This document shows, piece by piece, positions 13,259 to 13,672 of a DNA stretch of 22,205 nt. The DNA lies in NCBI RefSeq assembly GCF_006345805.1, contig NW_021823963.1, forward strand, positions 1 to 22,205, in the 5' to 3' direction. The first letter of the stretch is position 1; every line of letters begins with the position of its first letter. A model generated the notes under the pieces. That model worked only from the letters and a program-made list of their open reading frames with translations, had not been told where the DNA came from and did not search any database. Source of the stretch: Octopus sinensis. Taxonomy: Eukaryota. The position numbers and the translations under genes are program-made.

Positions 13259-13672
13259 ATAGAGTGGTTGTATAATGTCAACATAACATGACAGTCCCGT
13301 AAAGGGAATTACACCACCGCTATATAGCCCTAGGAAGCATCAACGCTTCCTGTTGGCTTTGACACATTTCCTGTGTCCTTATATTTGCAAAGGGGAGACA
13401 AGCACTCCCACCAGCTAGGACTAGCAACCTGAAGACATGTATGTTTCTGGGTCTTGCCCGTCATCAGTCCAGGGTAGCAAGTCCCGCTAGCTGAGATGCC
13501 TGCCAAGCCTTTGCAAATATATATATTTACAGTGAAATCTATTCATTGGTCACCGTAATTAGAAATATTAAATTTCTAAATGTCTCAAAGAGACATGAGC
13601 GGTGGTGGAGCGGATAGAGTGGTTGTATAATGTCAACATAACGTGACAGTCCCGTAAAGGGAATTACACCAC
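13259..13672 (-). mobile_element. Retrozyme-like element: 355-nt monomer plus 59-nt terminal direct repeat
   Basis: 13259-13317 is repeated at 13614-13672 (1 mismatch); single central HHR; many hairpins. Confidence 0.75.
13412..13493 (-). ncRNA. Canonical type I hammerhead ribozyme with long stem I
   Basis: Minus: CAGCUAG..GGAC..CCUGGA-CUGAUGA-CGGGCAAGACCCA-GAAA-CAU AC AUG-UC|UUCAGG..GUCC UAGCUG; GUC triplet; predicted cleavage between 13434 and 13433. Confidence 0.88.

Follow-up and report, generated by a model that had tools for sequence, protein, structure and literature searches.

Insertion ends suggest that a dispersed hammerhead repeat of Octopus sinensis is a retrozyme-like, non-autonomous Penelope-like element and a target of ORF1-only retrotransposons

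The first 22,205 nucleotides (nt) of contig NW_021823963.1 of Octopus sinensis (assembly GCF_006345805.1; this whole stretch is the window) carry at 13259-13672 a 355-nt hammerhead ribozyme unit that, judged by the insertion ends of its relatives across the genome, is likely a dispersed, retrozyme-like and non-autonomous Penelope-like element (PLE). The window copy is ordinary in itself and the interest lies in its family. It is reasonably probable that the unit was copied into AT-rich DNA by the reverse transcriptase (RT) and endonuclease of an autonomous PLE, with a circular monomer RNA as the probable template. New here are the insertion-end signature, which maps two likely sites of RT initiation, and a lineage of retrotransposons that targets one arm of the ribozyme. 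Comparisons with published systems refer to the relevant passages of the papers cited.

A DNA search of the 2.7-Gb genome returned 3,421 first-look candidates, of which the best 40 were scored (88-95% identical). Insertion ends were read in the sense of the ribozyme at 85 loci, 29 of them selected by length from the scored candidates and 56 chosen only by an exact 34-nt core; this core had 67 matches, six already among the 29 loci, and one overlapping and two duplicate stretches were dropped. Free RNA 3' ends fell at two sites ~55 nt apart in 110 of 132 cases, split evenly between monomer positions 1-8 (55/132) and 297-307 (55/132). Copies ending at the second site, half of the fixed ends, carry a tail of 55-58 nt. 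The 5' ends are spread over the whole unit without a pile at the cleavage site (monomer position 175), and the complementary DNAs (cDNAs) extend across the cleavage site as well as the unit junction. An inverted partner is joined at the 5' end in 33 of the 85 loci (11/29 length-selected, 22/56 core-selected), while TA or GA repeats adjoin 49 of the 110 fixed ends versus 2 of the 22 other ends. Same-strand runs measure 351-635 nt in the length-selected loci and 57-432 nt in the core-selected ones. An earlier sequence-only reading of the window had looked to circularly permuted genome copies as a mark of the family; random permutation was not found, one end being fixed at two sites instead. The same reading had proposed insertion by a Penelope RT, which is supported by two fixed 3' ends with an optional tail, 5' truncation, inversion and AT-rich or (TA)n targets, all features of PLE insertion.

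Among described PLEs, including MRC1, partial tandems, an inverted 5' copy, an optional tail and (TA)n targets recur (PMC8557442), and in vitro work on PAc showed that RT starts at two internal sites, between which the tail lies (PMC11167929). The octopus family resembles PLEs and their non-autonomous derivatives in its partial tandems, 5' truncation, inverted 5' copies and a hammerhead inside the repeat (PMC8557442, PMC11167929, 10.64898/2026.07.22.740005), and PLEs proper in the optional tail between two RT starts and the (TA)n targets (PMC8557442, PMC11167929). Unlike PLEs, the octopus unit has no open reading frame (ORF), its tail is longer than the 30-40 nt of PLE tails, and its hammerhead is the long-stem-I retrozyme form, not the minimal PLE form.

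In composition the unit follows the animal retrozymes that lack long terminal repeats (non-LTR retrozymes), as had been suggested from the sequence: a type I core in a 355-nt unit of 43.9% GC, folding with a z score of -9.7 and overlapped by no ORF of at least 80 aa. Mussel retrozymes measure 350-390 nt and those of axolotl 330 and 350 nt, and their circles have been shown (Cervera & de la Peña 2020, PMC7229834). Shared with these are a highly self-paired, non-coding unit of ~350 nt with GC below 50%, and a type I hammerhead whose stem I is long and whose stem III is short and palindromic (PMC7229834); the unpaired base of stem II is found in axolotl HHR_Amex2 (U·U) as well (PMC7229834). The differences are that octopus copies are mostly dispersed and shorter than 1.8 units where theirs are dimers to multimers, that the octopus family has two fixed internal ends and 5' inversions not among the features described there, and that the octopus circle is a predicted one whereas the mussel and axolotl circles are demonstrated (all PMC7229834). 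Additionally, no target duplication was seen at the window copy. The proposal that the family was undescribed agrees with the open full-text literature, in which no description of an octopus or cephalopod hammerhead retrozyme family was found, Repbase, Dfam, subscription papers and supplements lying outside that search; the unit, or the ORF1-only family described below, may already be catalogued in Repbase or Dfam.

Within the window, the unit and its parts are as follows.

13259-13613, minus strand: hammerhead unit monomer, 355 nt, non-coding, branched fold; 3.4% divergence from the most frequent letter of each column in related copies
13614-13672, minus strand: second unit, 5'-truncated (partial tandem); its length differs between copies
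13259-13266, minus strand: fixed RNA 3' end 1 (putative RT start), the one used by the window copy, beside AT-rich DNA
13555-13565, minus strand: equivalent of fixed RNA 3' end 2, monomer positions 297-307, at the foot of hairpin 13559-66/13572-79
13312-13607, minus strand: 10-bp closing helix 13312-21/13598-607 and the hairpins it encloses
13428-13473, minus strand: type I hammerhead with predicted cut at 13434/13433; core and stems read from the sequence, with compensatory changes in stems I and II among copies
Parts of the hammerhead, minus strand: stem I 13473-68/13433-28; CUGAUGA 13467-13461; C10.1 13460
Further parts, minus strand: stem II 13459-57/13451-49 with loop CAAGA; A11.1 13448; GAAA 13447-13444; stem III 13444-35
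13474-13500, minus strand: extended 5' arm of stem I, the insertion site of ORF1-only L1/Tx1-like elements in sister copies; empty here

The direct repeat seen earlier is present (13259-13317 and 13614-13672, 58 of 59 letters identical, period 355). The window copy uses the first fixed end without a tail, and its 59-nt redundancy is a truncation point, because the cDNA stopped 59 nt into the second unit. The redundancy of 1.17 monomers thus holds for this copy but not as a fixed feature, since run lengths vary across the 85 loci. All nine self-pairing helices listed by the sequence-only reading were recovered, eight of them perfect and 13527-35/13550-58 with 8 of 9 pairs. Compared with 60 dinucleotide shuffles, linear and circular and on both strands, the minus-strand monomer folds at -144.2 kcal/mol as a line (z -9.0) and -137.6 kcal/mol as a circle (z -9.7), with z scores of -6.9 and -7.7, respectively, for the plus strand, so that folding beyond that of shuffled sequence is confirmed.

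The canonical minus-strand hammerhead of the earlier reading stands as to its type I core and three stems, but not at positions 10.1/11.1, where the base of stem II is C·A, nor in stem III, where a private change at 13440 breaks the palindrome of the family; the window copy is probably a decayed monomer. The active hammerhead fold lies 4.4 kcal/mol above the minimum free energy of 13380-13521, and no Rfam hammerhead model matches the 355-nt unit. Conservation was counted over 350 aligned pieces, the counts being cells related by descent and not independent events. Core letters are 94-99% conserved apart from the variable position 7 and U4, which is replaced in a U4C subfamily. C·A at 10.1/11.1 is the commonest state of the family (121/177 aligned cores), with U·U, U-A, A-U or G-C in other subfamilies; the axolotl retrozyme hammerhead HHR_Amex2 still cleaves with U·U at the base of stem II (PMC7229834), and the available passages of Perreault 2011 contain nothing on 10.1/11.1. 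Of 46 cores, 32 have a perfectly palindromic stem III, represented by seven different sequences, and 10 others allow the palindrome with G-U pairs; a palindromic stem III is expected where cleavage is by dimers (PMC4209133). Subfamilies with a U3-A8 core instead of C3-G8 (L232, L200, L209, L221, L223) and with C4 (L229, L230, L236) were also observed.

Covariation had been put forward as a check; two-sided changes occur in stems I and II and several outer helices. Those in stem I comprise C-G to U-A (24 cells), G-C to A-U (23) and A-U to G-C (13), those in stem II 11 and 19 cells; outside the ribozyme, pair 131/254 is A-U in 38, G-C in 32 and G-U in 22 cells, and pair 324/336 G-C in 98 and A-U in 23. 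The closing helix 13312-21/13598-607, in contrast, is paired in 94% of cells with almost no two-sided changes, and it and several short hairpins say little on covariation because they hardly vary.

In the route proposed here, a transcript with two hammerheads would cleave itself, probably in dimers held by the palindromic stem III, before ligation of the monomer into a circle. As the fixed ends suggest, a PLE protein would then nick TA-rich DNA and start cDNA at one of the two internal sites, which lie ~55 nt apart and, measured around the unit, ~125 and ~175 nt away from the cleavage site. The cDNA would run past the unit junction and the cleavage site to a variable stop, matching the observed pattern of 0.2-1.8 units, and a second cDNA from the same two sites would often be joined to it inverted, as the inverted partners indicate. 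Separately, and again as a pattern among copies, three related ORF1-only L1/Tx1-like families enter the 5' arm of stem I, in units of this and of related hammerhead families, by what looks like a target-primed route of their own.

Private variants are often common to the tandem units of one insertion (L024, L004, L239); at L024 the units differ at 11 of 227 positions and share 14 non-majority letters, against a median difference of 13.9% to other copies, and L239 is a tandem with two complete hammerheads. Such shared variants and the read-through of the junction fit a ligated circle but also an uncleaved linear tandem transcript. Reads across 13434/13433, once named as a sign of a circle, cannot reveal one because ligation restores the genomic sequence. 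No run on record as RNA was listed as containing the unit. Contigs from three runs guessed to be RNA and from one unlabelled run cover the unit and indicate no strand, end or circle; they were not used as evidence.

Several observations weigh against this route. Two cores in direct tandem were found in only 3 of the 29 length-selected and 0 of the 56 core-selected loci, and no long array came to light, no two of the 67 exact cores being separated by 355 nt, although the assembly may collapse arrays. Identity within insertions is not universal (18/116 differences at L009, 21/174 at L072), and the pooled difference is 10.7% within insertions versus 13.3% between copies, figures inflated by over-extended alignments. 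The excess of G-U over A-C on the minus strand is weak overall (353 versus 295 cells) and reversed for helix 13295/13304 (18 versus 62), C·A at 10.1/11.1 may weaken cleavage, and joints of the type 'goes back 354' are present in a DNA-like run too. No autonomous PLE sharing the ends of the unit was found among 29 + 35 PLE-related loci. Lastly, PAc insertion did not need hammerhead cleavage (PMC11167929).

Because of that last result a linear template is possible, and the unit could be a non-autonomous PLE whose templates are the uncleaved linear transcripts of a few master copies in partial tandem, its hammerhead weak or serving only 5' processing and no circle being made. This is rather unlikely as a whole, though much fits it: every insertion feature requires only PLE machinery, the cDNAs pass through the cleavage site and their 5' ends do not accumulate at monomer position 175, uncleaved RNA was the main PAc substrate (PMC11167929), eight of nine Xenopus dimers stayed uncleaved in vitro (10.64898/2026.07.22.740005), and the base of stem II is C·A. 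Linear copies truncated at the 5' end would, however, lose length, and a long master array was not encountered among the loci. Divergent subfamilies retain both the paired stems and the palindrome of stem III, folding closes the complete monomer into a branched structure, and mussel units of the same size make abundant circles (PMC7229834). With no long master array and a dimer-type stem III retained, a circular template would be about twice as probable as a line. That the unit is instead the solo pseudo-LTR (pLTR) of an autonomous PLE family, with ORF-bearing copies outside the sample, is improbable. Most PLE insertions are 5'-truncated and leave terminal repeats (10.64898/2026.07.22.740005), and only the best 40 of thousands of candidates were scored; even so, copies longer than one unit continue into the unit again and never into an ORF (0/29), PLE protein occurs near just 1 of 59 stretches of 4-10 kb, there in separate pieces of both orientations, and a head-to-tail repeat at 355 nt leaves no room for an ORF.

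A related possibility concerns the PLE that stands beside the unit in the window.

13673-13754, no strand: 82-nt spacer outside the unit, without significant match in the loci examined
13755-15180, plus strand: decayed, 5'-truncated PLE with the C-terminal half of the RT, a CxxxxCxxC linker, GIY-YIG and several stops and frameshifts; 3' limit approximate

Pfam gives no match to this fragment, which was identified by its RT and GIY-YIG motifs in translation. The linker motif, as characterised in PMC8557442, would make it of Neptune or Nematis type. The sequence-only reading had offered as its alternative that the unit is the inverted pLTR of this element, and a co-insertion of the two in one twin-primed event may be considered with it. 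Unit and PLE lie only 82 nt apart, in a divergent arrangement that resembles the inverted pairs of the family; nevertheless, 0 of 29 other copies of the PLE contain the hammerhead unit, their 3' regions being unrelated, and 0 of 29 other unit copies contain the PLE. The PLE further stands 9.7% from the commonest letters of its family and the unit 3.4% from those of its own, by which the PLE looks about three times older. On these counts the two are read as separate insertions, and the alternative is very improbable.

Two candidates for a closer PLE connection were set aside. The 3' part of a related PLE family at window 3231-4600, with a fixed end and an optional ~35-nt tail, holds a 24-nt look-alike of the unit's first end at 3762; it lies in opposite sense in the 3' region of related PLEs and is a weak lead only. 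Two cores 5.6 kb apart on C12 enclose no PLE ORF and flank other insertions.

The second part of the analysis concerns elements that have inserted at the ribozyme itself. One and the same 1.65-kb insert occurs at monomer positions 216-234, with short duplications, in three core-selected loci. A search with the 3' end of the insert alone, followed by a 22-nt pattern of that end, gave 84 matches in 83 distinct contexts. In 55 of the 83, the insert 3' end is followed 20-37 nt downstream by a hammerhead core motif: a regular expression for the motif had 55 matches, one of them spurious, leaving 54, and visual inspection added one more. Among 3,000 control windows, 190 contain this loose motif. By eye, the other ends divide into ten where initial target letters give way to another inserted element or to other sequence, two at different places within a unit, and 16 that are off target. 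Target duplications of 14-22 bp, also read by eye and at many sites with only 1.5 kb of upstream sequence, are present at 30 of the 83 sites; eight of these 30 are not in hammerhead units, and several belong to 5'-truncated copies. The targets also include a second hammerhead family and the U3-A8 or C4 core variants, and while the letters at the cut differ, the distance from insert to core is kept in two classes (~20-26 and 28-37 nt). This second family, related to the first and hit by the same elements at L134, L139, L140, L198, L211, L241 and L248, has a palindromic stem III of other sequence and inverted copies beside TA tracts.

The inserts form three related families of 59, 10 and 6 members, each 1.6-2.1 kb long with one ORF and ending 3' in AATAAA. 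At L187 the whole element is filled by a 460-aa ORF with a zinc knuckle (zf-CCHC, below Pfam's cut-off) and ZCCHC3/CCHC-like Atlas matches of 0.91-0.93, a lead only. The insert ORF is 28% identical (E 2e-14) to an ORF1 preceding an APE ORF at L091; the protein has one relative (P0001) in another species, and the named relatives are octopod. A nearby RT of a long interspersed nuclear element (LINE) at L088, with a similar AATAAAG end, matches APE-RT-zf-RVT proteins that carry no clade names. The element itself lacks an RT, and the label 'Tx1-like' is given by architecture. On this evidence the inserts are best read as half-LINEs in the manner of HAL1 with Tx1-style targeting, derived from an APE-RT LINE. 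An autonomous LINE donor was not found by two junction patterns (10 matches, loci in the protein scan only), nor, among the matches listed, in up to 6 kb upstream of the 83 insert ends.

Known target-specific Tx1 elements include Tx1L in Tx1D, Tx1-Mar in Mariner-N4 and Keno in U2 (PMC4494074). The octopus inserts resemble them in using a narrow site in a multicopy repeat, at a proportion far above the 20% criterion applied there, and in 14-22-bp target duplications, 5' truncation and an AATAAA 3' end (PMC4494074); like HAL1 half-L1 elements they encode only ORF1 (PMC5753468). Unlike known Tx1 elements, their target is a ribozyme stem I arm in several divergent subfamilies with differing site letters, and no ribozyme-targeting Tx1-type element was found in the open full-text literature, with Repbase, Dfam, subscription papers and supplements outside the search.

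Passive carriage with the unit was considered as the sole cause of the insert location. The old and young clades of a tree of 50 of the at least 59 family-A ends partly track host subfamilies, while close relatives sit in different host subfamilies or off target. Hitch-hiking alone is rejected, given the inserts' own target duplications, their off-target copies, truncated inserts in otherwise intact units and the close relatives in different host subfamilies. At L024 and L079 a unit cDNA runs into the insert 3' end and then inverts, which suggests that some composite copies of unit and insert may have been re-copied by the PLE route. A three-tier chain can be proposed tentatively, as a possible but doubtful whole: autonomous PLEs would copy circular ribozyme RNA from two internal start hairpins, and ORF1-only LINE derivatives specialised on that ribozyme would find stem I by its structure or by the conserved core and not by the letters at the cut, land with their 3' end directly upstream of an intact hammerhead, and spread by means of the transcription, cleavage and PLE copying of their host.

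Other repeats share the window. At 119-2717 a 475-nt unit carrying a minimal PLE-type hammerhead is repeated 3.9 times in tandem, with cores on the minus strand at 424, 899, 1402 and 1877 and inverted copies on the plus strand at 2117 and 2655, ending in a (TA)n tract; it reads as a true tandem retrozyme-like array with PLE inversion. Hammerhead-like motifs at 12266-12350, 4852, 9936 and 11617, in which stem II is long and stem III either palindromic or decayed, are probably pLTR remnants of other PLE families. A fragment of another GIY-YIG endonuclease frame at 7655-8330, without Pfam match, is presumably PLE-like by its motif. Further, there are a minus-strand LINE RT fragment (16416-17975), a 61-nt minisatellite (15702-16368) and a 370-nt tandem array with GA tracts (19321-22205).

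In the discussion by Cervera & de la Peña, PLEs were 'a strong candidate' for the reverse transcription of retrozymes (PMC7229834). Li et al. (bioRxiv 10.64898/2026.07.22.740005) propose retrozymes as non-autonomous PLE derivatives from co-occurrence and pLTR similarity; the set described there has no mollusc and the mechanism is said to await elucidation. In the octopus, the PLE signature is read directly from the insertion ends, and these point to two exact sites as likely RT starts, which gives all that is needed to specify an in vitro test on the 355-nt circle. Insertion of LINE derivatives into a ribozyme arm would extend the list of Tx1-type targets, which holds small nuclear RNA genes, microsatellites, LTR transposons and DNA transposons; it also makes one ask how a single endonuclease lineage recognises the same structural site when the sequences diverge.
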